In this document: piece after piece, positions 1 through 45,424 of the stretch
How the letters are laid out: each line of letters opens with the position of its first letter
Numbering within the stretch: the stretch's first letter is position 1
Source: a bacterium UBP15_UBA6099
Lineage (GTDB): Bacteria > UBP15 > UBA6099
Length of the DNA: 64,000 bases
Direction of reading: 5' to 3'
Assembly (NCBI GenBank): GCA_002435745.1
Contig: DIWT01000004.1
Coordinates: forward strand, 19,096 to 83,095
The notes under the pieces: generated by a model
The model's input: only the letters and a program-made list of their open reading frames with translations
Database searches by the model: none
What the model was told of the DNA's origin: nothing
Program-made: the position numbers and the translations under genes

Positions 1-84
1 TCTGAGCTATATAACGAAGATCGAAATAACGGCTCCGAGAAGAATATATAAAGGTTGCCCCTGATTTTGAACCCGAATCCGTCA

Positions 85-274
85 TTTCATCGTTACCAAG
101 GCCCCCTTGGTAACGCGATAACTGAAAGCTCCGCTTTCACCACTTTTCTTTCCAGTTCATTTTCTCAGGGTTCCCGACGTCCAGTCGTTATAATGATACG
201 CGCATGAGCGATAAAATACGGAAGCAGAGCTTCCTGAACTTTCCGTTACCAAGGGGACCTTGGTAACGATGAAA
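85..274. repeat. Inverted pair of ~54-nt repeat units, each centred on a palindrome CGTTACCAAGG-N3-CCTTGGTAACG (REP/MITE-like)
   Basis: Unit A is 85-138 and unit B is 221-274. The reverse complement of A aligns to B: the inner 31 nt (CGTTACCAAGGnnnCCTTGGTAACGATGAAA) differ at one loop position, and the outer flank is roughly 70% identical by eye. Each core (91-115 and 244-268) can form an 11-bp stem with a 3-nt loop. Confidence 0.6.
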
Positions 275-366
275 GAAATGCCTTTATTTCCATTGACAGC
301 TTATTCAGGTTTATCGGATTTCTTTTAATGTTTGAAGGCGGTTTTGTATGACTTTTCAAAAAGGGG

Positions 367-795
367 TCAGATGTATTTCGATATTTTCTGTTTCAGTTCT
401 GTAAAGTCCGATTTTTTGACTACGTATTCTTCTGCGGCCCAAGACTGGAAGTCCTGTTTGAAGGTGTGATAGGCGGTGAGGAGGATGACGGGGAGGTCTT
501 TCTTTTTCTGCTTGATGGCGCTGAGGACGGCAAGGCCGTCGATTTCCGGCATTTTGATGTCGAGCAGGACGATGTTGACGCCGTAAGACATCTCTTCGAG
601 GGTGTCTAGGGCTTCGCGCCCGCCCTCGCACACGATTACCTGATGTCCGTCGTCCTCAAGCTCAAGCTTGAGCAGGTCCCGTATCTGCGGCTTGTCGTCC
701 ACAATCATTATTTTTTTCACGGCAATCACCGCATATATTATACCCCGAAAACGCTTCAGAGCGCGACCGGACTCGAAAAAAACCGCCGCCGTCAC
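367..795 (-). CDS. Single-domain response regulator (CheY-like receiver)
   Basis: Receiver-domain pattern: MIVDDKPQIRDLL...VLLDIKMPEIDGL...PVILLTAY...KK. The GTG at 795 overlaps the upstream stop as GTGA. An alternative ATG at 708 sits directly before IVDD, so the start is uncertain. Confidence 0.85.
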   Translation of the reverse strand: MTAAVFFESGRALKRFRGIIYAVIAVKKIMIVDDKPQIRDLLKLELEDDGHQVIVCEGGREALDTLEEMSYGVNIVLLDIKMPEIDGLAVLSAIKQKKKDLPVILLTAYHTFKQDFQSWAAEEYVVKKSDFTELKQKISKYI

Positions 796-1034
796 ACGCA
801 GTAGCCGTTTGCCCCGTTCTCCGCGGCGGTGATGTCGTGAAGTATTTTTATGGTTTTTTCCTGAAGCCGGTAGAAATCTCCCGCGCTGAGTTTTTCGACT
901 TTACGCTCCATCCCCGGCGCGGTGACTTCGGCGACGAACGCCGCGATCGCTTTTATCTGCTCCGGCTTCAGTTTATTTTCGTCTTCCAACTGATTAAGGT
1001 GCCTGATGATGCTGGACAGAAGTTTTTCGGTCAT
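792..1034 (-). CDS. Hypothetical 80-aa protein
   Basis: I trimmed ORF 792-1127 to the ATG at 1034, which follows GGAGGATATCTCTC. It lies between the XRE regulator and the receiver gene on the same strand. No motif recognised. Confidence 0.5.
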   Translation of the reverse strand: MTEKLLSSIIRHLNQLEDENKLKPEQIKAIAAFVAEVTAPGMERKVEKLSAGDFYRLQEKTIKILHDITAAENGANGYCV

Positions 1035-1086
1035 GAGAGATATCCTCCGATATCGGGAATGTTCGGGCGATTGCGGGAGAAGGCGG

Positions 1087-1506
1087 TCAGGGTGTTTCCC
1101 GGCCCCTCGCGCGGTCAATTTCTTCAATCAACCTGCGCCTGCTTTCATCTCCCGATTTCGCGTCGCCGAGCATCCGAAGCCCTTTGGCGACTTCATCCAG
1201 AGTCCGTTGCCTTTTCCTGTTCAGTTCCCTGTATGTTTCGACCAGTTTTCGTTCGGTGGCCGAGGCGTCGAACGGCGGGCGGGACGGCTTGGCTTTCCTG
1301 TTCACCGCCATCTCGCAAAGTTCCTCCATGCCGATGTTGTATATCTGGGAAAAAAGGTAGGCCGCTTTGAGAGACAGGCCCCGCTCGTCCCGCTCGATGC
1401 GAGACAGGGTGGTTTTGTCGAGAACCCCGCCGGACGCGGCCACCACTTCTCTTATGGACAGTCCCTGATTTTCTCTCAGCTTCCTCAATGTCGCTCCTAT
1501 CGCCAT
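1087..1506 (-). CDS. XRE-family helix-turn-helix transcriptional regulator
   Basis: N-terminal HTH_3 pattern (LRKLRENQGLSIREVVAASGGVLDKTTLSRIERDERGLSL). An SD (GGAGAGGAG) precedes the ATG. Confidence 0.85.
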   Translation of the reverse strand: MAIGATLRKLRENQGLSIREVVAASGGVLDKTTLSRIERDERGLSLKAAYLFSQIYNIGMEELCEMAVNRKAKPSRPPFDASATERKLVETYRELNRKRQRTLDEVAKGLRMLGDAKSGDESRRRLIEEIDRARGRETP

Positions 1507-1830
1507 GTGTCTTCTCCTCTCCGCCCGGCGGATAAGCCGCCGTTTTTATCCCGGTTATTTGTCCCATTTTAGACCTTGTCACTGAACAGTGTTGTTAAGC
1601 GGCATCAAAGAAAAACAAACCTTAAAAATCGACAGAAGAGGTTTTTGCCTTTTCCCAAACATTTCGCATCTTTTGTTCGGTCAATGTTGAGAATACGCGG
1701 CGTTGTCGGCGAATTTTTACGAAGCCGTATTTCTTATCGACGAAGCCGGATTTATTCTTAAATAAAAATCTTTAATGAAAAGCGGATTCATAAGTTGTGT
1801 GAGCTAAGACTCGGCAATTTTTAGGCGAGG

Positions 1831-2655
1831 TTACTCGAACTGTCGAAACAGCCACGGGTTGATGTGTCCGAGCGCTGGCATTCGGGAGCGGATGGAGTCC
1901 TGAAAATCATAATCTATCTCCGCAATGATGACGCATTCGCGGTCGGCGGCGCGGGCTATTACCACGCCCCACGGATCCGCCACTAGGCTCCTGCCGTAGG
2001 TGTTGCGCTTGGGCGTGTTTTTTCCGAACTGTCCGGGAGCGACCACGTATGCGTAGTTCTCGATGGCGCGGGCGCGCAGGAGAGTTTCCCAGTGGTCTTT
2101 GCCGGTGAGCAGGGTGAAGGCCGCCGGAACGAACAACACTCGCGCCCCCTTTCGGGCCAGCAGCCGATATAACTCCGGAAACCTCAAATCGTAACAGACT
2201 GAAAGCCCGATGGGGCCGCAGGGTGTCTGCGCCACCACTGCTTCAGCTCCCGGATTTATATGTTTTGATTCATTATAAGACGCTCCGTCGCCGACCTCGA
2301 CGTCGAAGAGGTGAATCTTCCTGTACTTTGCGATGAATTCCCCGTCCGGGCCGATGACCGGGCAGCAGTTGTGAAGCCTGCCGTCCGGGGCCGCTTCCGG
2401 GACGGTTCCCGCGACCATAGTGACGCGCCGGGCGCGGCAGAAGGCTCGCAGGTCTTCCGCCGGGCCGTCTTCAAACAATGAAGGATCGGCGGGCGGTTCG
2501 CCGTCGTCTCTTATCAACAGCCAGTTCTCAGGCAGCGCGATAAGCGAAGCCCCTCTGTCCGCAGCCTCCGCCGCCAGTTCGAGGGCGCGCGCCGCGTTTC
2601 TTGCGGCGTCTCCGCCTGATGTCATTTGTATAGCCGCTACTGTGAACTTCCTCAT
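1831..2655 (-). CDS. Carbon-nitrogen hydrolase (nitrilase superfamily, omega-amidase/Nit-like)
   Basis: Glu-Lys-Cys triad contexts are present: ALPENW, YRKIHLFD and GLSVCYDLRFPE. Length is 274 aa. Confidence 0.85.
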   Translation of the reverse strand: MRKFTVAAIQMTSGGDAARNAARALELAAEAADRGASLIALPENWLLIRDDGEPPADPSLFEDGPAEDLRAFCRARRVTMVAGTVPEAAPDGRLHNCCPVIGPDGEFIAKYRKIHLFDVEVGDGASYNESKHINPGAEAVVAQTPCGPIGLSVCYDLRFPELYRLLARKGARVLFVPAAFTLLTGKDHWETLLRARAIENYAYVVAPGQFGKNTPKRNTYGRSLVADPWGVVIARAADRECVIIAEIDYDFQDSIRSRMPALGHINPWLFRQFE

Positions 2656-2864
2656 TCCTCAGAACCTTTCTCCGCAGTATGAGAGCGCGGAACGCGTCGA
2701 GGCGGAGACCGTAGAGATCGAATCATTAGAGCCGATTCTGTCGCGCCTATATGAATATCTTAATTTAACATCATTTAAAAGCCAACCGCCGCCGGGTTGG
2801 CGGGAGCGAACAGCGCAGAAAAACGCCAAAAGTGACAAAAAAAGAAACATTTTTCAATCGCCAC

Positions 2865-2892
2865 TAAAGCAAAACGCCGGGACAGCCGATGA
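2865..2892 (+). promoter_or_regulatory. Sigma-28 (FliA/SigD)-type promoter of flagellin 1
   Basis: TAAA (2865-2868), 16-nt spacer, GCCGATGA (2885-2892). This matches the known TAAA-N15-GCCGATAA consensus. It lies ~55 nt upstream of the ATG. Confidence 0.6.
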
Positions 2893-2900
2893 TATAACAC

Positions 2901-2916
2901 GGGTCACGGACGACCC
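2901..2916 (+). promoter_or_regulatory. 5'-leader hairpin presenting GGA in its loop (CsrA-type binding-site architecture)
   Basis: GGGTC-ACGGAC-GACCC: a 5-bp stem with a loop containing GGA. A second GGA lies in the SD AAGGAGGA (2931-2938). Confidence 0.5.
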
Positions 2917-2945
2917 GATGCGTTTCTTACAAGGAGGAAACCACA

Positions 2946-3773
2946 ATGTCTGTCGTAAACACCAACATTTCCGGTCTGATAGGACTGAACAATCTGAGGC
3001 TGACAAACCTCGGATTGCAGACGTCGCTTGAAAGGCTGTCGTCGGGGCTGAGAATCAATCACGCCTCGGACGACCCCAGCGGTCTTGCCATCGCCAAGGG
3101 GATGGAAGCGCAGATAGGCGGCATCCGCACCGCCGTGCAGAACGCCGAGGACGGGATCAACCTGATCCGCACCGCCGACGGCTCTCTGAGCGAGACGCAC
3201 GACATCCTGCTTAGGATGCGAGACCTCGCGGTGCGCGCGGCCAACGAAGCCACGCTCACTCCCGCGGATCTCAACAGGCTTCACAACGAGTTTGTAAGCC
3301 TGATCGCGGAGATCGACCGCAAGTCGGATGCCGTCACTTTCAACACGAAAGTTCTGTTCGACGGCACTTTCGCAGGAGGAGAGGTGCTTCAGGTCGGCCC
3401 GGACAACGGCGCTACTTTCCAACTAACCGTGTCCATTCCTGACCTTGATTCAACAGGGCTGGGGATCAACGCCGCGTCGCTGTCGCAGGTGGCAAACGCC
3501 CAAGCCGCCATCGACTCTGTCAACAGCGCCATCAACCAGATATCCGACGTGCGCGCGAACCTCGGCATACAGGAACGCCGCCTCGGCCACATCATCGACG
3601 ACCTGAAAGCGGCCGATATAAACATCTCCGCCGCCAAGAGCCGCATCTACGACGCGGACATGGCAGTCGAGATAAGCGAGTTCACCCGCCTGCAGATACT
3701 CCAGCAGAGCGGCACGGCGATACTCGCTCAGGCCAATGCGCAGCCTCAGAGCGTGCTGCAACTTCTGAAATAA
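2946..3773 (+). CDS. Flagellin (275 aa), paralogue 1
   Basis: Conserved flagellin N-terminus (LERLSSGLRINHASDDPSGLAIA) and C-terminus (DADMAVEISEFTRLQILQQSGTAILAQANAQPQSVLQLL). SD and ATG are present. Confidence 0.95.
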   Translation: MSVVNTNISGLIGLNNLRLTNLGLQTSLERLSSGLRINHASDDPSGLAIAKGMEAQIGGIRTAVQNAEDGINLIRTADGSLSETHDILLRMRDLAVRAANEATLTPADLNRLHNEFVSLIAEIDRKSDAVTFNTKVLFDGTFAGGEVLQVGPDNGATFQLTVSIPDLDSTGLGINAASLSQVANAQAAIDSVNSAINQISDVRANLGIQERRLGHIIDDLKAADINISAAKSRIYDADMAVEISEFTRLQILQQSGTAILAQANAQPQSVLQLLK

Positions 3774-3803
3774 AGATATAAGCATCTAATCGGAATTAAC
3801 TTC

Positions 3804-3838
3804 AAGCGCCTCCTTCGCAGGGGGCGCTTTTTTCTTTT
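3804..3838 (+). terminator. Rho-independent terminator after flagellin 1
   Basis: AGCGCCTCC-TTCGCA-GGGGGCGCT stem-loop followed by TTTTTTCTTTTT. Confidence 0.75.
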
Positions 3839-3901
3839 TACGCGCGCGGCAGGCCGGACGCGCATCTCTTTTTTGATCGATTGTTTATTTTGTCGCTTCG
3901 C

Positions 3902-3928
3902 TAAAGGCAGTGGCGATTTTGTCGATAT
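3902..3928 (+). promoter_or_regulatory. Sigma-28-type promoter of flagellin 2
   Basis: TAAA (3902-3905), 15-nt spacer, GTCGATAT (3921-3928). Confidence 0.6.
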
Positions 3929-3946
3929 ATAAAATGTTCGAAATGT

Positions 3947-3962
3947 CGATAATGGATTATCG
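3947..3962 (+). promoter_or_regulatory. 5'-leader hairpin with GGA loop
   Basis: CGATAA-TGGA-TTATCG: a 6-bp perfect stem with loop UGGA. The SD GGAGG is at 3974-3978. Confidence 0.5.
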
Positions 3963-3985
3963 GCGGAAAACATGGAGGTGTAATT

Positions 3986-4813
3986 ATGTCGGTAGTAAAC
4001 ACAAACATTTCCGGTCTGATAGGGCTGAACAACCTGAGGCTGACCAACCTCGGGTTGCAGACATCTTTGGAGAGGCTTTCGTCCGGGCTGAGGATAAATC
4101 ACGCGTCGGACGACCCCAGCGGACTTGCTATAGCAAAGGGCATGGAGGCGCAGATCGGCGGCATCCGCACCGCCGTGCAGAACGCCGAGGACGGGATTAA
4201 CCTGATCCGAACGGCAGACGGCTCGCTCAGCGAAACGCAGGACATCCTTTTCAGGATGCGCGACCTCGCGGTGCGAGCGGCAAACGAGGCCACGCTCACT
4301 TCGGCGGACCTGACGAGGCTCAACAACGAGTTCAACAGCCTCATGGACGAAATTGATCGCAAGTCGGACGCCGTTACGTTTAACACCAAGGGGCTGTTCG
4401 ACGGCACTTTCGCAGCAGGACAGGTCCTTCAGGTCGGCCCTGACAACGGAGCCACTTTCCAGTTGACTGTGTCCATCCCCGATCTCGACGCCGCCGGACT
4501 CGGAATCAATACGGCTTCTGTGGGAGTGGTGGCAAACGCTCAGTCGGCGATCGACTACATAAACAGCGCGATCAATCAAGTGTCCGACGTGCGCGCCAAT
4601 CTAGGCATTCAGGAACGCCGCCTCGGCCACATCATCGACGACCTGAAAGCCGCAGACATCAACATCTCCGCCGCCAAGAGCCGCATCTACGACGCGGACA
4701 TGGCAGTCGAGATAAGCGAGTTCACCCGCCTGCAGATACTGCAGCAGAGCGGCACGGCGATACTCGCTCAGGCAAACGCTCAGCCGCAGAGCGTGTTGCA
4801 ACTGCTTCAGTAG
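3986..4813 (+). CDS. Flagellin (275 aa), paralogue 2
   Basis: Same conserved termini as paralogue 1; ends LLQ instead of LLK. Confidence 0.95.
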   Translation: MSVVNTNISGLIGLNNLRLTNLGLQTSLERLSSGLRINHASDDPSGLAIAKGMEAQIGGIRTAVQNAEDGINLIRTADGSLSETQDILFRMRDLAVRAANEATLTSADLTRLNNEFNSLMDEIDRKSDAVTFNTKGLFDGTFAAGQVLQVGPDNGATFQLTVSIPDLDAAGLGINTASVGVVANAQSAIDYINSAINQVSDVRANLGIQERRLGHIIDDLKAADINISAAKSRIYDADMAVEISEFTRLQILQQSGTAILAQANAQPQSVLQLLQ

Positions 4814-4843
4814 CGCCGCCTTTCAATAAAAAGATATTTATTA

Positions 4844-4880
4844 AGCGCCTCCTTTTAAGGGGGCGCTTTTTTGCTTTTTT
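4844..4880 (+). terminator. Rho-independent terminator after flagellin 2
   Basis: AGCGCCTCC-TTTTAA-GGGGGCGCT stem-loop followed by TTTTTTGCTTTTTT. Confidence 0.75.
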
Positions 4881-4947
4881 CAAGGTTTTCTATCCGAGTC
4901 GGCGAGAAACGCGGGATGGCAGCGGCTCCTGATTTTTTCGCCGCGTA

Positions 4948-4974
4948 TAAAGTTATTTTTTTTTATGTCGATAA
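4948..4974 (+). promoter_or_regulatory. Sigma-28-type promoter of flagellin 3
   Basis: TAAA (4948-4951), 15-nt spacer, GTCGATAA (4967-4974). Confidence 0.6.
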
Positions 4975-4987
4975 AAAACATATAAAA

Positions 4988-5007
4988 GTCGATCACGGAT
5001 GATCGAC
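4988..5007 (+). promoter_or_regulatory. 5'-leader hairpin with GGA loop
   Basis: GTCGATC-ACGGAT-GATCGAC: a 7-bp perfect stem with a loop containing GGA. The SD GGAGG is at 5018-5022. Confidence 0.5.
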
Positions 5008-5029
5008 TCTACAACATGGAGGTGTAATT

Positions 5030-5857
5030 ATGTCGGTAGTAAACACAAACATTTCCGGTCTGATAGGACTGAACAATCTGAGGCTGACGAACCTCGGATT
5101 GCAGACGTCGCTTGAAAGGCTGTCGTCGGGGCTGAGAATCAATCACGCCTCAGACGACCCCAGCGGACTTGCCATCGCCAAAGGGATGGAGGCGCAGATC
5201 GGCGGCATCCGCACAGCAGTGCAGAACGCCGAGGACGGGATCAACCTGATCCGCACCGCCGACGGCTCTCTGAGCGAGACGCACGACATCCTGATGAGGA
5301 TGCGAGACCTCGCGGTGCGCGCGGCTAACGAGGCAACGCTCACATCCGCCGACCTGACGAGGCTCAACAACGAGTTCAACAGCCTCATGGCCGAGATCGA
5401 CCGCAAGTCGGACGCCGTCACGTTCAACACGAAAGTTCTGTTTGACGGCACGTTTTCCGCCGGACAGGTGCTTCAGATCGGTCCGGACAACGGAGCCACT
5501 TTCCAGTTGACCGTGCAGATTAACGACCTCGATTCCACAGGTCTCGGAATCAACACGGCTTCAGTGGGAGTGGTCGCAAACGCCCAGTCGGCGATCGACT
5601 ACATCAACAGCGCCATCAACCAGATATCCGACGTGCGCGCGAACCTCGGCATACAGGAACGCCGCCTCGGCCACATCATCGACGACCTGAAAGCGGCCGA
5701 TATAAACATCTCCGCCGCCAAGAGCCGCATCTACGACGCGGACATGGCAGTCGAGATAAGCGAGTTCACCCGCCTGCAGATACTCCAGCAGAGCGGCACG
5801 GCGATACTCGCTCAGGCAAACGCTCAGCCGCAGAGCGTGCTCCAGCTTCTTAAGTAA
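5030..5857 (+). CDS. Flagellin (275 aa), paralogue 3 (mosaic of 1 and 2)
   Basis: Same conserved termini. The central residues alternate between paralogue-1-like and paralogue-2-like blocks. Confidence 0.95.
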   Translation: MSVVNTNISGLIGLNNLRLTNLGLQTSLERLSSGLRINHASDDPSGLAIAKGMEAQIGGIRTAVQNAEDGINLIRTADGSLSETHDILMRMRDLAVRAANEATLTSADLTRLNNEFNSLMAEIDRKSDAVTFNTKVLFDGTFSAGQVLQIGPDNGATFQLTVQINDLDSTGLGINTASVGVVANAQSAIDYINSAINQISDVRANLGIQERRLGHIIDDLKAADINISAAKSRIYDADMAVEISEFTRLQILQQSGTAILAQANAQPQSVLQLLK

Positions 5858-5883: not shown

Positions 5884-5920
5884 AAAAAAAAGAAACCCGC
5901 CACGGCGGGTTTCTTTTTTT
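5884..5920. terminator. Bidirectional rho-independent terminator between convergent flagellin 3 and the radical SAM gene
   Basis: AAAAAAAAGAAACCCGCC-ACGG-CGGGTTTCTTTTTTT: a GC-rich stem flanked by an A-run and a T-run. Confidence 0.8.
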
Positions 5921-5942: not shown

Positions 5943-7898
5943 TTATCTTTCGTTCACTGCGAATTGAAGCCCTTTGAGACGTTTGCGGAGCGCCGCCATC
6001 TGGCGCGCGTGCGCCTCCGAACAGTTTATCTTTATGTCCGCGCCTTTGCGGGAAAGAGATTCGAGCATCCTGCCGAATGCCTCAGAATCCAGACGCGCCA
6101 AAGGCGCAAGGTTTATGTGAACAGCCTTGACGGCTATCTTCTTTTCGTTGAGCGTGTTAATCAGTCTGCGCATGGTTTTCTCTTTTACAGAGCCGCGAAG
6201 GTAAACCGAAAGCTCCGCCTCTCCGCCTCTGTTTTCGAGGAAAGCCCATGCTTTGCGGAGTTTAAGGAGGGCAGTGGCGCGGGCGGCGGAACACGCGGCG
6301 GCGGCGACCTCAGCCGGCTCCATCCTGAACCGGGTGACTATCGCTCGCGGGTTGTGGGGATGGAACTCCCTCTCGTATCTCATCCGCGCCGCGCTCGCCA
6401 TGAGCCAGACCGCCGAGTTGGCTATGAAATGCGCCGGGTTTCGCGCCCCGAACTTTTCGGCGAACATCGCCTCTATGCGTTCAGCTTTCTCTTTCATCTG
6501 TTTTTCCGGGGCGAGCCATTTAAGGGCGGTCAGCGCGTGACGGTATGCTTTGCATCTGCGAACGGCGGTTTCATATCTCGCCGCCATCATCGGGTCTCCG
6601 CTCTTGTAATGAGGGGAATTCAGCCCCTGAATCATGGCCTCGCCGACCCTGAGTATGGACGGGCCAAGCTCGCGGAACTCGCGGGCGAACGCTTCTTTAG
6701 TCGTCACCGCGCTTTCCTCCCGCGTGAAGTGCGGGTGCTTGAACCACAGCATGTGTTGCCCGTGCCATTCCTCATACGGCACGTCGTCCAGCAGTAGCCC
6801 TTGCTCCTTGTATTCGAGGTAGAGTCTAGTCTGCGGCAGGGGGCCGAGCTGCATGAACTGCGTGAAGTCCGGCTTCAGGCTTATCGCGAAATCGATGTCC
6901 TCGTTGATGCTCTCTTTGTCGTGATGTTCAAGGAAAAGGATGGACGATGCCAGCACGAATATCCCGTTCGCGCGGAGTTCGGCGATGAGCGCCTGAACGT
7001 CGATTCCTTTGGTTTTCTCGAACAGGTTCCGCTTGGACTCGACGCCTATCCACACGTAGTTGACGCCCAGCGCCATCATGTTGTCCACGCCGAACGCCGT
7101 TATCGCCTCTGCGGACGAGAAAACGCTGAAGTTGAACGGCCGGTTGTGCTCGCGCATGAGCGCCAGCAGTTCCATCGCTCTGTCTTTGTGAAGGAGAAAG
7201 TTCTCGTCCATCACGAAGAAGTCGTTTGTCTTAAGCTCGTCCGCGAGCCGCACGCACACGTCGAATATGTCTTTGCCCGTTTTCAGGAACGGGGTGTATT
7301 CCTTGTCGTAGAAGTGGGACGTGCAGCAGAACCGGCAGGCGTTCGGGCAGCCAACGCCGGGCACTAGCACCGCGCCCTGTTGCGTGAACGGAAGCCCGAG
7401 AATCCTTTTGTGGTCCGCGGCGGGCATCGCCGGGTGCTTTATCGGCGCGTTCATGTCCTCTCCCAGCAGATTCCTCAGCTTGCTGATTCCCTCTCCGGGC
7501 AGAACATGGTCGCAGTCGATCAAAGTCTCGATGTCGGGGATTCTCGAACCGTGGCCTCCGAGGATTATTTTCGTCTGCGGCGAAACCTCTCTGATTATCT
7601 CCGCCATCCTTCGCGCTTTCACGAAGTTCGGGGCGATGAAGGAAATGCCCACGTAGTCGTAGCCTTTGGCAAGCTCCTTGCGAAACTGTTTTATCGATGG
7701 GAAGTCGAGCACAGTGGTGGGAGTGGACAGGTTCTCCGCGATGAAATAGAGGCCGAAACTCCTGTGATTGTATCTGAGCGAGAAAATGCCTTGCTCGCGG
7801 GTCACCTGATTGTGGAACAGTTCGAGTTTATTTTCCTTGCGGCCATAGGCGTCGTCTACGCCGAACGGCCTGAATACCGATGTAAGCAGTAATTTCAT
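5943..7898 (-). CDS. B12-binding-domain radical SAM protein with a ~180-aa C-terminal extension (STAS-like?)
   Basis: The N-terminal region has a cobalamin-binding-like pattern (YDYVGISFIAPNF...KIILGGHG), followed by the radical SAM cluster motif GVGCPNACRFCC (CxxxCxxC). Total length is 651 aa. Confidence 0.8.
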   Translation of the reverse strand: MKLLLTSVFRPFGVDDAYGRKENKLELFHNQVTREQGIFSLRYNHRSFGLYFIAENLSTPTTVLDFPSIKQFRKELAKGYDYVGISFIAPNFVKARRMAEIIREVSPQTKIILGGHGSRIPDIETLIDCDHVLPGEGISKLRNLLGEDMNAPIKHPAMPAADHKRILGLPFTQQGAVLVPGVGCPNACRFCCTSHFYDKEYTPFLKTGKDIFDVCVRLADELKTNDFFVMDENFLLHKDRAMELLALMREHNRPFNFSVFSSAEAITAFGVDNMMALGVNYVWIGVESKRNLFEKTKGIDVQALIAELRANGIFVLASSILFLEHHDKESINEDIDFAISLKPDFTQFMQLGPLPQTRLYLEYKEQGLLLDDVPYEEWHGQHMLWFKHPHFTREESAVTTKEAFAREFRELGPSILRVGEAMIQGLNSPHYKSGDPMMAARYETAVRRCKAYRHALTALKWLAPEKQMKEKAERIEAMFAEKFGARNPAHFIANSAVWLMASAARMRYEREFHPHNPRAIVTRFRMEPAEVAAAACSAARATALLKLRKAWAFLENRGGEAELSVYLRGSVKEKTMRRLINTLNEKKIAVKAVHINLAPLARLDSEAFGRMLESLSRKGADIKINCSEAHARQMAALRKRLKGLQFAVNER

Positions 7899-8099
7899 TG
7901 TGTAACCTCATCTCCGCCGGGGACGCTGACTGCGGATGCGCGTCCGCCGAGTGTCATAATGATAGCGCCTGTGACACGAATGTCCATAGAAAAGAATAAT
8001 GGTTTATGGGCTTTGTAGCTTCTGAACAAAAAGACAATAGTGAAAATACAATTCTGCGTTATTAAGATGGGAACAACAGGAAAACAATATTTCTCACCA

Positions 8100-8128
8100 T
8101 TGACAATAAGTGAATTTGGCATTAATAT
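8100..8128 (+). promoter_or_regulatory. Candidate sigma-70-type promoter of the island cassette
   Basis: TTGACA (8100-8105), 17-nt spacer, TAATAT (8123-8128). It lies ~40 nt upstream of the first island ORF. Confidence 0.4.
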
Positions 8129-8168
8129 TGGCACCTAATCTGAATCAGGCTTTTCATACCCAGCCGCG

Positions 8169-8750
8169 ATGGGGAGTGTAGTTTTGAAAAAATATTCTAA
8201 AGAAAAATATGGCAATACGTTGCTTCAAATCGAAGTGTTTATACCAAAGAGATTGACAAATCTAGGTAAGCTTGTCGAACTTCTTGAAAACATGCTTGAT
8301 TTCAGAAGAGCGAAAGAAGATCTGATTTGTCGAGCAAATGAAATATTTGAGCAGACAGAATGGGGCAATGAAGGAATAAAGAATATAAAACAGGCTAAAA
8401 ATAGAATTAAACAGATAGAAAAATGCATTCATGGATATTCTATTTATGAGGTTGACGGGGCTTTCGAGACTTCATGCGACATGAAGACCAGCAAAATAAG
8501 AAAATCGGATGTGAGGATTTGTGAAGAAAGAACAATGGTTGTTAGAATGCTTGCATACGCCGATCCAACCGAGGAGGAAAAGAAGGATAACGTTGATTTT
8601 TTCAATACGAGAAGCGTTGTCGACGCGCTTTTAGTTGCAAATGAATATTTGGCATTTAAGATCGCAAGCGATGTTGCTGAGGAGGATGAGATTTGGGTAA
8701 CAGCAAGTAAAGTATGGTCAAGTATCTGGAAAAAACATAGCGATGACTAA
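8169..8750 (+). CDS. Hypothetical protein (193 aa), first gene of the AT-rich island
   Basis: This is the only long ORF in the interval, and its codon usage matches the island. No motif recognised. An alternative TTG start at 8184 lies 7 nt after GGGGAG. Confidence 0.55.
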   Translation: MGSVVLKKYSKEKYGNTLLQIEVFIPKRLTNLGKLVELLENMLDFRRAKEDLICRANEIFEQTEWGNEGIKNIKQAKNRIKQIEKCIHGYSIYEVDGAFETSCDMKTSKIRKSDVRICEERTMVVRMLAYADPTEEEKKDNVDFFNTRSVVDALLVANEYLAFKIASDVAEEDEIWVTASKVWSSIWKKHSDD

Positions 8751-8931
8751 AATACTGGAGATTGGAGAGTATGACATAAATTGAATAGTGGGCGGCGCAT
8801 GGCTGATTTCACAATGGATTTAGTATCATTCGGAATAATTTAAAGACATTGACAAAGAATCGATTAATGTCTTAAATTTTAAGACAGAATAAATGTATGA
8901 AAAATGAAATATAATATAATGGGGGGCTAAA

Positions 8932-9078
8932 ATGTTTGAGGACGATAAGGGATTGATTAACAATAATGAAATCGAAAATGATACACTGGAATTGGAATGG
9001 GAAGTTGCTGTTCCAGTTGATAGGTCAAGAGTAAGCCACATGTATTGTTTTAAAAACTGTTCCGTTAACTCTAATTAG
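8932..9078 (+). CDS. Candidate RiPP precursor peptide (48 aa), not in the supplied ORF track
   Basis: The ATG is preceded by GGGGGG with a 5-nt spacer. Translation: MFEDDKGLINNNEIENDTLELEWEVAVPVDRSRVSHMYCFKNCSVNSN. It has an acidic N-terminal half and a C-terminal CxxxC. It sits 111 nt upstream of the RRE-rSAM-SPASM gene on the same strand. Confidence 0.55.
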   Translation: MFEDDKGLINNNEIENDTLELEWEVAVPVDRSRVSHMYCFKNCSVNSN

Positions 9079-9189
9079 AATGGTTAGGGAGAACATCAAA
9101 CTGAAATCTTCTTGAAGGAGTGATATACTTTTTTCGAATTTAAATATGAAGGAAAAGAAGTAGCAAAACAGACAGTTAGAACAACTTTA

Positions 9190-10503
9190 TTGTTACATCA
9201 CTCTTATGCTGTTCCTCAAAATGTATCAGTTGTTAGAAAAGACGATGTTATTTTGGTAATTAATCCACAAACAGCTAATTGGCTGGTGCTAAACGATATT
9301 GAATTAGAAGTATATTTTTTGCTCGCAGAAGGAATAACAATAAAAAAGGTCATAGAGAAGATTTCTAAAAAAAGCAACTGTAATCAACATGCCTCTTCAA
9401 TTGTCAAAAGATTTCTTGCTCAATCGGAAGCTAAACAATTCAACAAAACTGTTGGGACTGTGTTCGCAGATTCATTTGGGATGTATGTTTTTCTAACATT
9501 TGACTGCAATCTGAAGTGTAGTCACTGTTTTCTATACGATAAACCACGACTCGGAGATCCTCTTGAAATTGAACAATGGAAAAGAATACTCATTGATTTT
9601 CAGCTTGCCGGAGGAGAAAAGATAACATTATCTGGAGGGGAACCGACACTTTTTGATTCCTTTGCAGATATCCTTGTTTTTGCACATGGCATTGGATTGA
9701 AAGTGACATTATTGACAAATGGCATGATTTTGCATTCGGAACTACTAGAATTATATTCTAACAATGTAGATGAACTCCAGATTAGCCTCGATGGACCGGA
9801 AGAGATTAGTCACGAGATGATAAGGGGAAAGGGAACTTACTTTAAGACATACTCAAACATAAAAAAAGCGTTAGACAAGGGCGTTATGGTTACTATTGCC
9901 ATGACGCCAACTTTTGAGACATTTCCATTTTTCGAAGAGCATTTTGTTCGATTTGCGAAATCTTTACTTAATGAATACTCAAATGTAAATGTTAAATTGA
10001 CACAAAAGCTTCTTCGATCAAAAATGTCGATTTATTCGGATACGGATATGAATAAATATTACGCAAAAGGAAATAGACTGATTAATAATCTTTATGAGGA
10101 TTATTCCATCAATGCGTTTTATTTAGACCACCCTGTGAATACAATACGACGCAATTGTGGTTATGGCGAGATATCAGTTATTCCAGACGGAACCGTGTAT
10201 TTATGTAGTAGGATTTGTGATTTGAAACCAGTTGCAAATTTAAAGGAATTAAAAATGGTAAACGTGATACAAATTGCACGAGAGGAGAAAGAGAGGGCTT
10301 CAGTGGAGAATATCATCCCATGTCAGCATTGTTGTTTAAGGTATATCTGTTCTGGTGGTTGCAGAATAGACGACATCCCTGATTTTTGTAATGGACAATT
10401 GACTGTAGATTGTCCTGAAGAAAGGAAGCAACAAATATTTGACATGATGATAGAATCAAACAATATGTATTTCAATATAGAGTATAAACCAAATAATGAA
10501 TGA
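9190..10503 (+). CDS. Radical SAM/SPASM peptide-maturase-like enzyme with a PqqD-like (RRE) N-terminal domain
   Basis: CxxxCxxC motif (FDCNLKCSHCF) and GGEPTL. C-terminal auxiliary-cluster cysteines are present (CGYGEISVIPDGTVYLC...PCQHCCLRYICSGGC). The N-terminal ~90 aa fit the PqqD/RRE pattern (VILVINPQTANWLVLNDIELEVYFLL..GITIKKVIEKI). The start is TTG; there is no in-frame ATG upstream. Confidence 0.8.
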   Translation: MLHHSYAVPQNVSVVRKDDVILVINPQTANWLVLNDIELEVYFLLAEGITIKKVIEKISKKSNCNQHASSIVKRFLAQSEAKQFNKTVGTVFADSFGMYVFLTFDCNLKCSHCFLYDKPRLGDPLEIEQWKRILIDFQLAGGEKITLSGGEPTLFDSFADILVFAHGIGLKVTLLTNGMILHSELLELYSNNVDELQISLDGPEEISHEMIRGKGTYFKTYSNIKKALDKGVMVTIAMTPTFETFPFFEEHFVRFAKSLLNEYSNVNVKLTQKLLRSKMSIYSDTDMNKYYAKGNRLINNLYEDYSINAFYLDHPVNTIRRNCGYGEISVIPDGTVYLCSRICDLKPVANLKELKMVNVIQIAREEKERASVENIIPCQHCCLRYICSGGCRIDDIPDFCNGQLTVDCPEERKQQIFDMMIESNNMYFNIEYKPNNE

Positions 10504-12898
10504 AGAACATAAACATAAAAGCATATTAATTATATTTATAAATTGGGCTCATCAGCCTAGGATCAGGATAGTCCAGCGAACATATGCTGCTAGAAACAGC
10601 CCCTCTCCCAATGCAATAAAAGATATTGATCATATCAATCCATCATTGATTGCGCAATTTCCTGACGATCTTGACAAAAAGTTGTTGGGTTGGCTGATGG
10701 TGCCTCACAAAGCATTGCTTCCAGACCCGGTCAGGGTCAATGATATACCTGTTGGAATAATCAATGAATACATAAAGCGCAAGCGTGCCTATTATTCTCC
10801 TTCAGGAAAAAACAAATCCTTAAAAAGAATATATTCTGTAGATATTGACATCCCTAATGTTGGTGTATATTCTTGGAGTATCAATGAACGAAATCTAATT
10901 TTGAGTAGTAGTTTTATTGGCGACGATATGGTTATCATTGAGAAACATCCTATTATGATAATCTCAAGAACAGAAAACAATAATTATGTTGGTATTCCAT
11001 ACGCAAGGGTAAAACACAACGATGGTTATGTGCCTTTGTTTTCTTTTAGTAAGGAAGCGACATTAACACTGCTAAGTCAATTAATTAAATGTGCAAGATC
11101 AGAAGATTATCTTTTGTGGTATTTTCCTGACAACATGTATGAATTGTCATTATCGATTGAAACACTTATAAACGATGGTTGGGATATCGAATATGATGAC
11201 AAGAAAAGAGTTGTAAAAACGACTCGATGGAATATGAAAGCAAATGATAAAACCGATTGGTTTGAAATTGATGGAGTTGCTCAATATAATGACAGCACAT
11301 TGTCTATATCAGAAATGCTTGCGGCATTGAGAAAGAGGTCGGCTTTTGTTGCGTTAGAATCAGGGGGTATAGCGGTTCTTCCTTCAGATTGGATAAAAAA
11401 TATTATTCCAATGGAACCATATCTCTCTGCAAATATGAGAATATCCAGATCATTCGTTGGATTAATAAGTGCGTCAACAAGCATCAATTCAGAGAATAGT
11501 ATTAGTTACAAAATAGCAAGAAAACTTATCTCAGCGCAAAACAATTATGAACCGGTATTATGGGATGGTAAATGTCTGAAACCATATCAGAATTGTGCTG
11601 TAAATTGGCTTAATGAAGCATATAAACAAAACATTGGATGTCTTCTTGCGGATGAAATGGGATTGGGTAAAACCATTGTTACTCTTGCTCACCTGTCTTT
11701 ATTTAAGGGAGATCATCTTATAGTAGCTCCAGCTTCAATCATATCTAATTGGATTCATGAAATTGAAGTAAATTTACCTAACGCAATGTGGTCTCTATGG
11801 GGATCAAAAGAAGAACAATCTGATTCTTCAAGAACCAGCATATATTTAATGAGCTATCAAACCATGCTTAGAAACATAGATGCGATAACTATGAAGCGTT
11901 ATATGGTAGCAGTATTCGACGAATCACAGTATTTAAAAAACTCATTTTCGATGACGGCGAATGCAGCAAGGAAAGTTAAATGCAATCAAGCTATCGCATT
12001 AACAGGAACACCAATTGAGAATAATGTATCGGAGTTGTGGAGTCATTTGAACCTTGTTGCGCCGAATTGGCACAATAATCGAAGGAATTTTGAGACTATT
12101 TGTAGCGAAGCAACCAAGAGTGATGCCTCGTTGATTCATCTTAGAAAAGCTTTGTCTCCATTTATATTGAGAAGAACTAGAAGTGATGTTTTAAAAGATT
12201 TACCTGATTTGAATATCGAGATAATAAGATGTGAGTTGAGTGAAGACCATCTAAAGCTCTACAAAAAATGGATGATATCAGCAAGAAAGGCTTTTTCTGA
12301 CCCTGAGCATAGAACAAGAAAAAAAGGTGCGGTGTTAGAAGTGTTGTTAAGATTGAGGCAAATCTGTTGTGACCCGCTTTTGATAACACAAGACTATGAT
12401 GGTGATGTTGTTGTGTCAGGAAAAACTGAAGCAATATTAAATGCTATTATTGTGATTTCTGAATATGACAAATTATTAGTGTTTTCACAGTTTTCATCAT
12501 ATTTGGAGTTATTAAAAACCTTACTAGATAAGCATTTTGTGAATAATTTACTATTGATCGGAACTACTGGCAACAGAGATGATGTGATAAAAGAATTTAA
12601 AGAATCAGAAAACACAAATGTATTATTAGCAAGTCTTAAAGTTGGAGGCGTCGGATTGAACTTAATAGAAGCTGCTAACGTAGTATTATGTGATCCATGG
12701 TGGAATCCTGCTGCAGAGATGCAAGCATGGTCAAGAGCATATAGAATGGGGCAAAAGAAAAATGTAAATGTTATAAAATTTGTGTGTAAAAACACTATAG
12801 AAGAACGCATATTGGAGCTTCAAGAAAAAAAAGCTACACTGAATCAATTTGTGCCAGAAAAAATATCAAGCAAAGAAATTATTGAATTATTGAAATAA
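10496..12898 (+). CDS. SNF2-family ATPase/helicase (800 aa) with an uncharacterised ~350-aa N-terminal region
   Basis: SNF2_N motifs (LKPYQ, LLADEMGLGKT, DESQYLKN, ALTGTPIENN) and helicase-C motifs (SLKVGGVGLNL, DPWWNPAAEMQAWSRAYRMGQ). The ATG overlaps the rSAM stop by 8 nt (ATGAATGA). Confidence 0.9.
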   Translation: MNEEHKHKSILIIFINWAHQPRIRIVQRTYAARNSPSPNAIKDIDHINPSLIAQFPDDLDKKLLGWLMVPHKALLPDPVRVNDIPVGIINEYIKRKRAYYSPSGKNKSLKRIYSVDIDIPNVGVYSWSINERNLILSSSFIGDDMVIIEKHPIMIISRTENNNYVGIPYARVKHNDGYVPLFSFSKEATLTLLSQLIKCARSEDYLLWYFPDNMYELSLSIETLINDGWDIEYDDKKRVVKTTRWNMKANDKTDWFEIDGVAQYNDSTLSISEMLAALRKRSAFVALESGGIAVLPSDWIKNIIPMEPYLSANMRISRSFVGLISASTSINSENSISYKIARKLISAQNNYEPVLWDGKCLKPYQNCAVNWLNEAYKQNIGCLLADEMGLGKTIVTLAHLSLFKGDHLIVAPASIISNWIHEIEVNLPNAMWSLWGSKEEQSDSSRTSIYLMSYQTMLRNIDAITMKRYMVAVFDESQYLKNSFSMTANAARKVKCNQAIALTGTPIENNVSELWSHLNLVAPNWHNNRRNFETICSEATKSDASLIHLRKALSPFILRRTRSDVLKDLPDLNIEIIRCELSEDHLKLYKKWMISARKAFSDPEHRTRKKGAVLEVLLRLRQICCDPLLITQDYDGDVVVSGKTEAILNAIIVISEYDKLLVFSQFSSYLELLKTLLDKHFVNNLLLIGTTGNRDDVIKEFKESENTNVLLASLKVGGVGLNLIEAANVVLCDPWWNPAAEMQAWSRAYRMGQKKNVNVIKFVCKNTIEERILELQEKKATLNQFVPEKISSKEIIELLK

Positions 12899-12899
12899 A

Positions 12900-13475
12900 T
12901 CATAGCGGTTTGTGCCAGTTTTTGTATATGCCGCCGTAAGCGCCGGTGTCGTAGAGGTGGGCGATGACGAGGGCGACGGCGTTTTTGAATCCGGCGTCGC
13001 CGGAGATTGCGAAAGCGAGCGGGCCTGTAGCAGCGGAATAGTAATAGACTACGGACGCATGGGCGTTGTTCGGGACGGATGGGGCGGATATGACCGCCGC
13101 CGGGTCGCCGGGGAGCACGATATTGATTTTTGCTCCGAGAGCTGACGCGATGAATTTTAGCAGGTCGGGTTCGAAGCCGCGCGCGACGCCGTATTCATCC
13201 CTGAAGCACATGGGAGGGCGTTCGCAGTCCACCGCCGCGGCGATGATGCCGGAAGCGCGAGCGGCGCGCAACGTCTCGGAGTCCCCTGCGGCCAGTTCGA
13301 CATCCGCTGCGAGAACGCTTTGCACGGGGTCTCTGGCGGTGGCGGCGGGAACGGTTTCCGAGGGGACGGCGGACGGATCTTGACCCCGGGGGCATCCGGA
13401 AATCAGGACGGCAACTGCCGCCATAACCGCCAGCGCCGACGCGCGTTTCAACCTGTTGTGTTTCGGTTCTATCAT
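12900..13475 (-). CDS. Lipoprotein with a short solute-binding-protein-like domain
   Basis: Signal peptide with lipobox (VLISGC). It resembles SBP_bac_3 (GFEPDLLKFIASALG), though the domain is short. Confidence 0.55.
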   Translation of the reverse strand: MIEPKHNRLKRASALAVMAAVAVLISGCPRGQDPSAVPSETVPAATARDPVQSVLAADVELAAGDSETLRAARASGIIAAAVDCERPPMCFRDEYGVARGFEPDLLKFIASALGAKINIVLPGDPAAVISAPSVPNNAHASVVYYYSAATGPLAFAISGDAGFKNAVALVIAHLYDTGAYGGIYKNWHKPL

Positions 13476-18484: not shown

Positions 18485-19280
18485 CGGTCACCACGCCGCG
18501 TCCGGTTTTCCGCTCCAGTTCCAGCCTCGCCTTTTTTGCGATTCTTCCGCCTTTTCTGCCCGCCTGCGCATTTTCATCCATGCCGGTTGCTTCAACGCTC
18601 TCCGCAATCTGGCGGGTGGAAAGCTCCGCTAAAGCTGTAAAAATCAGTTCCGCCTCGCTCATGTGGTCGCGTAGGTTTTGAGTTTTGAGGTCCTTTATCT
18701 GCTTGTGTTTCTTGACCGAAACCCCGCTCCATTCTTTGTGAATTATATTGGTCAGAATGGCGTATTCGTCTTCGCCTTTAATCTCGTGGTCTTTCCAGTA
18801 ATCGGTGAGTTTATTGCGGGTTTCCTGCCCCATCATCCGCTGCTGAATCCATTTTTCGCTTCTGCCGCTCTGTTGCCAGTAGTCGCGCGCCCGGTCAAGG
18901 GATCGGGCCGGATCGCTCATGTCCTGAATGCGCTCGTAACCCGCTTTGGCAAGCCATAGCTTGATGGGTTCCGCTCTGGGACTGGGAACCGACTGTATGA
19001 TTCGCAGAAGAGCCTCCGGGCCGGCCGCGTCGGTCAGGTATTTTTTCCCGTCAGCGGCTTCCATTTTCAGTTGGTGACAATTTGTCACCGACTGATTTCC
19101 CTCTTTCTTGAGGCGTTCTTTCAACTTGTTCCAGTACTTCCGGGCAGTCTGATAATCCGGCTGCTGAATCAGCGCGGCGATGATATCCACAACGGAAAAC
19201 AACCATGTTTCTGTCTTTTCATCATAAATCCTGCGGATTTTAAAGTTTTCAAAAACCGCAAGCGCCTTTTCTTCATTCAT
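18420..19280 (-). CDS. Bro-N / DinD-like (DNA-damage-inducible protein D family) protein
   Basis: The N-terminal pattern FENFKIRRIYDEKTETWLFSVVDIIAAL and the overall 286-aa layout match my recollection of this family. It overlaps both neighbouring genes. Confidence 0.55.
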   Translation of the reverse strand: MNEEKALAVFENFKIRRIYDEKTETWLFSVVDIIAALIQQPDYQTARKYWNKLKERLKKEGNQSVTNCHQLKMEAADGKKYLTDAAGPEALLRIIQSVPSPRAEPIKLWLAKAGYERIQDMSDPARSLDRARDYWQQSGRSEKWIQQRMMGQETRNKLTDYWKDHEIKGEDEYAILTNIIHKEWSGVSVKKHKQIKDLKTQNLRDHMSEAELIFTALAELSTRQIAESVEATGMDENAQAGRKGGRIAKKARLELERKTGRGVVTGDNFLPPAKTKKKLGNNAEET

Positions 19281-20781: not shown

Positions 20782-21409
20782 CCTCCAGAAAGTGCGTTAA
20801 CGGGTACTCTTTCACAGGCTCATTTAAGTATGCCTCGTTATTCTCATCGCTGAATATCATTAGTTGGTGTTGCTTGTCTACTAGAAACGAAAGCATGAAA
20901 TCGCGCCGCTTTAGCATGCTACCGTTGACCGGCGACCATTCAGAAAATATAATCGGTCGCGGATTGTTTCCCACGGTTTTCAGATCAAGCGCGTCTCCAT
21001 GAATAATATTGCGCTCAAGGATATATTTGACCGCATTCCGACATTCATTCCTTGCGCCGAATATAAAAAGGCGCGTGTAGTTCAGATCAAAGATGTCAAA
21101 AAGCCGGTTGCGACATTCCTGAACATTATCCTTAAGAATATCAATGCCGTATATGGAGGACACGGCAAGAACAGCATTCCTCTCGTACTCCAGTTGAATC
21201 TTTTCGTATCGGAATTCAACGACGCGCAATTTCCGTTCCAGAATTTCCGACAGAAAATTGCCCGTGCCGCATGCGGGTTCAAGAAACCGGGATTCGATCC
21301 TTTCTGTTTCCTGTTTCACCAGATCAAGCATGGCGTTGACTTCTCGTTTTCCAGTCAATACCTCGCCATGATCAGCGACCCTCTTCTTGGAGACAACTTG
21401 CTTTTCCAT
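20759..21409 (-). CDS. Short methyltransferase-like protein (AdoMet-binding motifs only, no NPPY)
   Basis: HGEVLTGKREVNAMLDLV (motif X-like), EPACGTGNFL (motif I), YGIDI and HGDAL are present. No (N/D)PP(Y/F) is found in the 216 aa. The gene overlaps the downstream MTase by 23 nt. Confidence 0.55.
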   Translation of the reverse strand: MEKQVVSKKRVADHGEVLTGKREVNAMLDLVKQETERIESRFLEPACGTGNFLSEILERKLRVVEFRYEKIQLEYERNAVLAVSSIYGIDILKDNVQECRNRLFDIFDLNYTRLFIFGARNECRNAVKYILERNIIHGDALDLKTVGNNPRPIIFSEWSPVNGSMLKRRDFMLSFLVDKQHQLMIFSDENNEAYLNEPVKEYPLTHFLEVADVDRQ

Positions 21410-25315: not shown

Positions 25316-25343
25316 CGCGCGGGAGCGGGGAGCGGAGCGGCGT

Positions 25344-26723: not shown

Positions 26724-26872
26724 GTCGTCTCCGGGCGAAGCCGTCGGCGCTCGCCGCCGTTTCTTTCGCCGATGGATTATAACACACCGCGCGGACTCCG
26801 GAAATCGCGCGTGGACAAAGCCTTCCGCGCCGCGTTATAATTGAAAAAAGAAATCCGAAAGAGGCGCGCGGT

Positions 26873-27175: not shown

Positions 27176-27206
27176 AGCGCGCCGGGCTGTCGGCGAGCGC
27201 CCGGCT

Positions 27207-40355: not shown

Positions 40356-40371
40356 GGCTATGCTCCCTTTG

Positions 40372-41958: not shown

Positions 41959-41990
41959 GCCTTTTAGGAATGACCGCGCATCCTGCCGGG

Positions 41991-43694: not shown

Positions 43695-43756
43695 ATTGTC
43701 CTCCCATTTTTATCGCGCGTTTTCTGTCTTGTGTCCGTCGCCATCAACCCGCGGGC

Positions 43757-45403: not shown

Positions 45404-45424
45404 GCGCTTCGCCTCAATTCGCGA

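Follow-up and report, generated by a model that had tools for sequence, protein, structure and literature searches.

A 64,000-nucleotide (nt) stretch of contig DIWT01000004.1 from the bacterium UBP15_UBA6099, called the window in the following, carries three flagellin genes in tandem, the third of which is a genuine recombinant mosaic of the first two. Such a mosaic had been proposed from the sequence alone, and it is confirmed here by site clustering, segment trees and synonymous sites. We consider it probable that the locus is an old, conserved tandem triplication that has been shaped by gene conversion, with recent tracts at the 3′ end and an additional layer of exchange between lineages.

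The sequence-only reading had described three tandem flagellins of 275 amino acids (aa), and open reading frames (ORFs) of this length were found at exactly the positions it gave, namely gene 1 at 2946–3773, gene 2 at 3986–4813 and gene 3 at 5030–5857, all on the forward strand. Pfam identifies each of them by Flagellin_N (PF00669) at residues 4–142 (E ~1e-35, 122–125 bits with a cut-off of 26.6) and Flagellin_C (PF00700) at residues 189–274 (E ~1e-26, 91–92 bits with a cut-off of 23). Their coding DNA aligns without a gap at identities of 84.1% (gene 1 versus 2), 89.6% (1 versus 3) and 88.2% (2 versus 3), gene 2 being the most distinct paralogue over the 5′ 300 nt. Differences between the proteins are concentrated at residues 85–200. 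Residues 1–84 do not differ at all among the three flagellins and residues 201–275 are the same except for the final one (K, Q and K in genes 1, 2 and 3), so that the identical or nearly identical termini noted earlier are borne out.

Along the protein alignment, gene 3 is like gene 1 in SETH, AEIDR, TKVLF, DSTGLG, NQISD and the terminal LLK, and like gene 2 in TSADLTRLNNEFNSLM, AGQVLQ and INTASVGVVANAQSAIDYINS; every one of the blocks listed in the earlier reading was recovered. At the nucleotide level gene 3 agrees with gene 1 at 69 sites and with gene 2 at 57, whereas it is the odd one out at 23 sites where genes 1 and 2 agree, and counts of 69 versus 57 are unobtainable from any single tree. 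In gene coordinates, gene 3 is gene-2-like at 6–18, gene-1-like at 39–298, gene-2-like at 303–362 and gene-1-like at 366–408. A mixed block at 420–510, whose nearest sequences are the gene-1 orthologues of two relatives (M_1 and A_1, introduced below), is followed by a gene-2-like block at 516–574, a block identical to gene 1 at 575–788 and a last gene-2-like block at 789–801. Donors for these segments were also sought in other flagellin clusters, and none was better than genes 1 and 2.

Nucleotide alignment and breakpoint-type tests, the check suggested along with the earlier reading, revealed significant clustering and incongruent segments. The 126 informative sites form 38 runs, and none of 20,000 permutations produced as few; the maximum chi-square is 14.3 near nt 303 (p = 0.0055), and the pairwise homoplasy index (PHI) test on 11 genes including orthologues gave z = -7.5 (0 of 2000 permutations). 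Neighbor-joining trees of consecutive segments are incongruent, with switches at bootstrap values of 79–100 and a bootstrap of 100 for the gene-2 clade in nt 1–300. When these trees are anchored by orthologues, strong bootstrap support puts gene 3 of the window and of relative A (W_3 and A_3) inside either the group of gene 1 or that of gene 2. Divergence without any recombination, in which regional rate differences or convergent selection would yield the pattern of gene 3, has in its favor that constraint varies along the gene, the rate of non-synonymous change (dN) being ~0 at the termini and 0.06–0.2 in the center. Label permutation, however, preserves this rate heterogeneity and never reproduces the clustering, the PHI test is significant, and the segment trees place W_3 and A_3 as just described. 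Moreover, synonymous sites alone change the topology. Counted at codons that give the same amino acid in all three genes, there are 12 synonymous differences between genes 1 and 3 versus 32 between genes 2 and 3 in nt 1–300, and 9 versus 3 in nt 301–362. Since the synonymous sites switch too, selection on the protein is unable to explain the mosaic, and we regard simple divergence as hardly credible. Polarization of synapomorphies by outgroup sequences, for which second-cluster flagellins were used, was uninformative, with too few sites at which the outgroups agree.

A comparison with related genomes, likewise suggested earlier for the copy number, informs us on the age of the mosaic. In five further assemblies the three flagellin genes recur as a cluster flanked by the same two neighbors, a CN-hydrolase gene and a radical-SAM gene. 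In the following, W denotes the window and A (locus L001), K (L034), J (L035), M (L003) and C (L002, partial) these relatives, with the gene number appended where needed. Positional orthologues diverge by 7–11% for gene 1, 8–12% for gene 2 and 6–8% for gene 3 of W, A, K and J; in the single-copy flanks W, A, K and M differ by 4–10%, and J differs from these by 9–14%. The 275-aa mosaic version of gene 3 is the one present in W, A, K and J. As the main mosaic is common to these four genomes, whose flanks differ by 5–13%, it is older than their divergence. In M and C, gene 3 instead encodes 287 aa (L003 10324–11187 and L002 1472–2335, respectively), with a 12-residue insertion and a center that is 23–30% different at the nucleotide level, for which no donor was found in any fetched flagellin locus. 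The two forms of gene 3 do not follow the tree of the flanking genes, in which M lies no farther from W than A and K do, and both the 275-aa and the 286–287-aa form are common in metagenomes.

Recent exchange leaves a different trace, as without exchange since divergence the distance between paralogues should be the same within and between genomes. For the pair of genes 1 and 2, nt 1–252 differ by 12.5% within and 12.7% between genomes, and the corresponding values for nt 253–600 are 24.7% and 24.9%. In nt 601–825 the pair of genes 1 and 3 differs by 5.1% within versus 7.4% between genomes, and paralogue distances are here not larger than orthologue distances. Homogenization after divergence is confined to the 3′ ~225 nt. 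The conversion that the sequence-only reading called ongoing stands for this region only, and not for the main mosaic, which predates the divergence of W, A, K and J.

The clearest case of a recent conversion specific to this strain is a 214-nt tract (gene nt 575–788, at 3520–3733 in gene 1 and 5604–5817 in gene 3, forward strand) over which genes 1 and 3 are 100% identical. Within this segment W_1 and W_3 show no differences, versus 8 between W_1 and A_1 and 13 between W_3 and A_3, and they group together with a bootstrap of 100. The tract is the longest identical run of all paralogue pairs (the next has 119 nt, the median is ~50), and W_1 and W_3 share derived bases at 672, 675 and 729 that were seen in no other genome compared. 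It also accounts for the earlier remark that the 3′ ~230 nt of genes 1 and 3 are nearly identical: the last 253 nt contain 8 mismatches, all of them within the final 40 nt. Another ~30 nt across the start codon of gene 2 are, to judge by their sequence, a short strain-specific conversion tract as well. This stretch (3974–4003, forward strand) comprises the Shine–Dalgarno (SD) motif GGAGG, the spacer and the first 18 coding nt and is gene-3-type in W only, where it reads GGAGGTGTAATTATGTCGGTAGTA, as in gene 3, while A_2, K_2, M_2, C_2 and J_2 have GGAGGTGGA(A/G)(A/G)(A/G)ATGTCAGTCGTA.

The identity of the protein termini, in turn, is for the most part not a product of homogenization. In codons 1–84 the rate of synonymous change (dS) between genes 1 and 2 is 0.72 at a dN of 0.005, and dS of gene 2 to genes 1 and 3 ranges over 0.64–0.72. 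The identical termini reflect mostly purifying selection on old copies, not conversion. In codons 201–275, dS is 0.17 for W_1 and W_3 versus 0.36–0.46 for orthologues, the low value being due to the recent tract.

Could the mosaic have been made in the computer, by a short-read assembly that collapsed or chimerized near-identical tandem copies or mixed strains? The contig of the window was indeed assembled from short metagenomic reads (JGI 3300002498, TOLCLC_10003310), tandem repeats at 84–100% identity assemble poorly, and several related contigs end inside flagellin genes. Against this, gene order and spacing recur in the five other assemblies, which come from different samples and pipelines, and the same gene-3 mosaic is found in A, K and J; synteny around the cluster is unbroken, and every spacer between the genes has its orthologue. 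In this context, a further contig is informative. L040 (ENA ERZ27315036, k141_349324) is 100% identical to window positions 1–3660 and ends at 3660, matching gene 1 base for base up to that point. Position 3660 is the last base of the first 141-mer that lies wholly within the 214-nt tract, and if the repeat of at least 141 nt is real, a k = 141 graph must branch at 3660, as is seen. For the old mosaic an assembly artefact is largely refuted, and as an explanation of the locus we judge it very unlikely.

The relatives furthermore uncover a process that the sequence-only reading had overlooked, namely exchange between lineages that also patterns the locus. The nearest relative of W is M upstream and at the 5′ end of gene 1 (2–7% divergence), A through gene 1 and the 5′ half of gene 2, and K in the 3′ half of gene 2 and the spacer between genes 2 and 3, which is 5–6% different from K and 14–24% from A and M. 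Through gene 3 the nearest relatives are A, K and J, and from ~5580 into the radical-SAM gene it is M again. The two flanking genes yield different distance trees, and the gene-3 forms cut across both. The switching of the nearest relative and the discordant flank trees therefore indicate that allelic recombination between lineages contributes. A stronger version would derive the mosaic mainly from such exchange by DNA uptake, the 275-aa and the 286–287-aa form of gene 3 being old and mobile between genomes. The succession of nearest genomes and the disagreement of the flanking genes fit this idea, as does the wide occurrence of both forms and the fact that M, though close to W, has the other form of gene 3 while the outgroup J has that of W. 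Yet the blocks of gene 3 resemble paralogues 1 and 2 and no known gene-3 allele, and two paralogues of one genome share the 214-nt tract without a difference, including bases unique to that genome. Exchange between lineages alone cannot explain blocks that match neighboring paralogues, and as the principal source of the mosaic we find it rather unlikely. It is not exclusive of conversion between paralogues, and very likely it is a contributor.

The three genes were originally thought to be transcribed independently, each from its own promoter and up to its own terminator. Each gene has indeed both, and the promoter-like elements are of the sigma-28 type, not sigma-70. The FliA/SigD (sigma-28) consensus is well established. 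Putative promoters of this type, all on the forward strand, precede gene 1 at 2865–2892 (TAAAG-N15-GCCGATGA, kept in A, K, M, J and L017), gene 2 at 3902–3928 (TAAAG-N14-GTCGATAT, kept in A, K, M, C and J) and gene 3 at 4948–4974 (TAAAG-N14-GTCGATAA, kept in its orthologues). A relaxed sigma-28 pattern has two matches in 64 kb, both 5′ of flagellins, where 0.06 would be expected. The strict GCCGATAA pattern (consensus type TAAA-N15/16-GCCGATAA) has none in the window, because the -10 boxes are GCCGATGA, GTCGATAT and GTCGATAA. Among orthologues the boxes are conserved while the spacers diverge, and a dependence of the three promoters on FliA would be in line with these motifs. Since all three boxes are sigma-28-type, differential transcription by different sigma factors, as in flaA and flaB of Campylobacter and as one route to the differential expression envisaged earlier, is not indicated. 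A scan for sigma-70 promoters came up empty 5′ of all three genes.

Transcripts ending at these genes would be closed by intrinsic terminators predicted at 3804–3839 for gene 1 (forward strand, an 11-bp GC-rich stem with a T-run, homologous to the terminator of gene 2) and at 4843–4878 for gene 2 (forward strand, from hairpin prediction). Downstream of gene 3, a 17-bp perfect palindrome between an A-run and a T-run at 5885–5920 is a probable bidirectional terminator (-23.1 and -27.9 kcal/mol, z ~-5). It would be shared with the gene for a 651-aa B12-binding/radical-SAM protein (5943–7898, reverse strand) that converges on gene 3 and is found beside the flagellin cluster in all relatives.

The leaders, of ~50 nt each, contain a conserved feature that was missed in the sequence-only reading, a predicted RNA hairpin that presents GGA in its loop (all forward strand). 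In gene 1 the hairpin CGGGUC[ACGGAC]GACCCG (2900–2917) would provide a first CsrA site and is identical in all gene-1 orthologues, and a second GGA, a putative CsrA site 2, lies in the SD AAGGAGG (2931–2937) 25 nt after the loop GGA. The hairpins of gene 2, UGUCGAUAA[UGGA]UUAUCGGCG at 3944–3965, and of gene 3, AGUCGAUCA[CGGA]UGAUCGACU at 4987–5008, are followed by the SD at distances of 20 and 21 nt between the two GGAs, the SD of gene 3 being GGAGG at 5018–5022. The stems vary between paralogue groups and are unrelated in sequence, with the loop GGA retained. A GGA-loop hairpin of at least 5 bp was detected in 47 of 49 flagellin leaders of the lineage versus 13 of 50 controls (Fisher p ~1e-13) and in 9% of shuffles. 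CsrA binds the flaA leader of Campylobacter jejuni, which has the same layout with a GGA spacing of 20–25 nt (PMC4894983), and the Hag–FliW–CsrA circuit of Bacillus subtilis uses this leader layout too (PMC6529632). By analogy, CsrA and FliW may control the three flagellin mRNAs. A tblastn search for csrA over all loci returned only matches in Pelosinus, beside the flagellins of that genus, and none in loci of the lineage, and no PF02599 or PF02623 domain was found among the flagellin neighbors in L034–L041. The Pelosinus loci (L023, L024, L026 and L028) carry the nearest outgroup flagellins (~45% identity), with csrA immediately upstream, the classic Firmicutes arrangement, which none of the fetched clusters of the target lineage shows. 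Rfam at gathering thresholds gave no match in the window.

The early description of the proteins as core-only flagellins, consisting of D0 and D1 with no D2/D3 insertion, is supported by predicted architecture. Residues 3–274 align end to end with the solved flagellins 9oxj (272 aa), 6t17 (276 aa) and 9hpz (270 aa), the best solved match is the 304-aa flagellin of B. subtilis (5wjx, E 5.6e-57), with several flagellins of 270–282 aa also among the nearest, and only ~46 residues separate Flagellin_N from Flagellin_C. The AlphaFold2 model has helices at 2–40, 46–100, 106–132 and 185–274, a loop at 133–175 and no extra domain; as its confidence is modest (predicted local distance difference test score of 64), the assignment relied on the sequence matches to solved filaments. 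The three flagellins may well be co-assembled in one filament. Besides the CN-hydrolase and the radical-SAM enzyme, the neighbors of the cluster are a helix-turn-helix protein and a response regulator. No other flagellar genes were detected by Pfam among the ORFs of the 64-kb window or beside the fetched flagellin clusters of the lineage.

With variation in the exposed part of these proteins, a programmed system of antigenic or phase variation comes to mind, in which silent donor cassettes or an invertible switch would diversify the filament surface, and the sequence-only reading had suggested antigenic and structural variation. Variation is indeed concentrated at residues 85–200, which are the exposed part of a D0/D1-only filament. 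But each of the three genes is complete with promoter, leader, start codon and terminator, and a silent cassette is therefore not among them. In the variable center, codons 85–200, dN/dS is 0.05–0.22 and gives no hint of diversifying selection, and orthologues are stable across genomes that are 5–13% apart. No layout of an invertible element or of silent cassettes was seen either, the only inverted repeats being the terminator palindrome and short chance matches, and no recombinase gene lies nearby. We attach next to no probability to such a system. An invertible promoter switch of the type of Salmonella fliC/fljB-hin was considered separately and rejected, there being no flanking inverted repeats and no adjacent recombinase.

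The history that we favor, conversion within an old triplication, would run as follows. The starting point would be an old tandem triplication of monocistronic late-flagellar genes for D0/D1-only flagellins, each with a FliA/sigma-28-type promoter, a leader of ~50 nt and an intrinsic terminator of its own. As direct repeats with a period of ~1.04 kb, these genes would swap short stretches by non-reciprocal homologous recombination, that is gene conversion, presumably of the RecA type, and the near-invariant ends that code for D0 and D1 would provide identical runs of tens of bases to initiate the exchange. Gene 3 of W and three relatives would have gained at least five alternating tracts from genes 1 and 2 before the four genomes diverged, at the place where two other relatives have a divergent center that is 12 codons longer. 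Later, and in this strain only, the 214-nt tract would have equalized genes 1 and 3, and the ~30-nt tract would have made the start of gene 2 gene-3-like. Allelic exchange among related lineages would have added the second mosaic layer.

Several observations weigh against this account. Overall, paralogue distances within genomes are barely below those across genomes, and concerted evolution is therefore weak. A 3SEQ-like maximum-descent statistic reached only marginal significance (p = 0.039), the exchange being spread over many short tracts instead of concentrated in one long one. A possible third recent tract, nt 448–494 of gene 1 with gene 2 as its source, is ambiguous since sites 448 and 488–494 are shared with J_1 and may be ancestral, not strain-specific, and for most exchanges donor and recipient are not assignable. 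Every sequence compared comes from a metagenome assembly, and L040, although obtained by a different method, may share culture or reads with the window and so need not represent a second sample. Finally, searches of the window, of a further ~20 kb of its contig and of the surroundings of the lineage's flagellin clusters, together a small part of any genome, turned up no csrA, fliW or fliA, so that the regulatory part of the account draws on cis-motifs.

The wider lineage gives the locus its context. The RelA/SpoT protein of the window is 98% identical to a single protein from a metagenome-assembled genome (MAG), 63–44% to those of other MAGs and at most 40% to those of named taxa (Dethiobacteria, Clostridia and others), which places the host in a deep-branching uncultured lineage as far as this protein tells. 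Genomes of the lineage contain at least 7–8 flagellin genes in at least three dispersed tandem clusters. Clusters of 2–6 tandem genes lie scattered among unrelated housekeeping genes (L004–L006, L010–L014, L016–L022 and L037–L039). A bolder thought, and one we would call a long shot, is that balancing selection, exerted for instance by flagellotropic phages or predators, might maintain the dimorphism of gene 3 as a trans-species polymorphism at the exposed surface of the filament, with both conversion and exchange between lineages reshuffling it. In the same scheme, CsrA-type leaders on at least 7–8 flagellin mRNAs might form a titration network for CsrA that spans many mRNAs and sets the composition of the filament.

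Elsewhere in the window, a low-GC island at 8005–12900 (35% versus ~57%) starts exactly where synteny with L002, L003 and L034 stops. It holds a 193-aa ORF without a Pfam match, a radical-SAM/SPASM-like enzyme (9190–10503) and, overlapping it, a SNF2-family helicase (10496–12898), and it is probably a horizontally acquired insertion, possibly related to defense. A patch of lower GC content (48–49%) at 15914–21409 encodes a T5orf172/ResIII protein of 856 aa, a Bro-N protein, an Eco57I-type methylase and a short fragment like an MmeI methylase; it looks like a restriction/defense region or a prophage remnant. A full MmeI-family enzyme lies ~13 kb past the end of the window (L041 11526–14402). 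The stretch 22000–28000 is unusually high in GC (61–67%), with many overlapping ORFs on both strands, and includes a 459-aa ORF without a Pfam family (23936–25315) that adjoins a gene of the Mur-ligase family (25344–26723). A cluster at 37854–47910 comprises a glycyl-radical enzyme (PFL-like plus Gly_radical, 833 aa), two FGGY sugar kinases, a FAD-linked oxidase, a GlpD-like dehydrogenase and a GntR regulator, for which an anaerobic polyol or sugar pathway is possible.

What the flagellin locus adds is documentation. It records that a deep-branching, uncultured and anaerobic lineage has clusters of several flagellin genes, promoters of the sigma-28 type and leaders of the CsrA type, and it separates old from recent conversion tracts and exchange within a genome from exchange between lineages. 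It also calls for caution, as the flagellin paralogues are unusable here as independent markers and contigs tend to break within them. Our understanding of how flagellins evolve and are regulated is left unchanged by it, and the dimorphism of gene 3 and the lineage-wide CsrA-type leaders are the only points possibly worth more work.

Among known systems, flaA–flaB of Campylobacter is a close parallel, for which intragenomic recombination (Harrington et al. 1997) and concerted evolution (Meinersmann & Hiett 2000) are described (both as cited in PMC5126078). Like flaA and flaB of C. jejuni and C. coli, the window genes are tandem paralogues in the same orientation with non-reciprocal exchange, promoters of their own and a GGA-hairpin leader. 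Campylobacter, however, has two glycosylated flagellins of ~570 aa with D2/D3, sigma-28 and sigma-54 promoters and strong homogenization, whereas the window has three genes for core-only proteins of 275 aa, all sigma-28-type, with weak and mostly 3′ homogenization. In B. subtilis CsrA has two sites on the hag leader, the first within a hairpin and the second overlapping the SD. The gene product Hag (5WJT, 6GOW) is the closest solved sequence, also D0/D1-only and likewise transcribed from a SigD/sigma-28-type promoter; B. subtilis has a single hag adjoining fliW–csrA, whereas there are at least three flagellin genes in the window and at least 7–8 in the genome, with neither fliW nor csrA in the fetched DNA of the lineage.

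The flagellins of Caulobacter crescentus have ~273–276 aa. As in the window, many small core-only paralogues are arranged in clusters and presumably co-assembled in one filament, which in C. crescentus is a multi-flagellin filament of six flagellins (PMC7591256). Regulation there is by sigma-54/FlbD and FlbT/FlaF, not by sigma-28 and CsrA, and recombination mosaics are not a defining feature of that system. Three tandem genes are also known from Stenotrophomonas maltophilia, whose fliC1–fliC2–fliC3 proteins share 67–82% identity (PMC8998449). They form one operon and encode larger proteins, whereas each gene of the window has its own terminator and promoter-like box. More generally, about half of the flagellated species have more than one flagellin gene (PMC6299084, on FlaA and FlaB of Shewanella), and long-lasting concerted evolution of fla genes is reported for the Alteromonadales (PMC6053082). 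Recombination between tandem flagellin genes is already a well-known evolutionary route.

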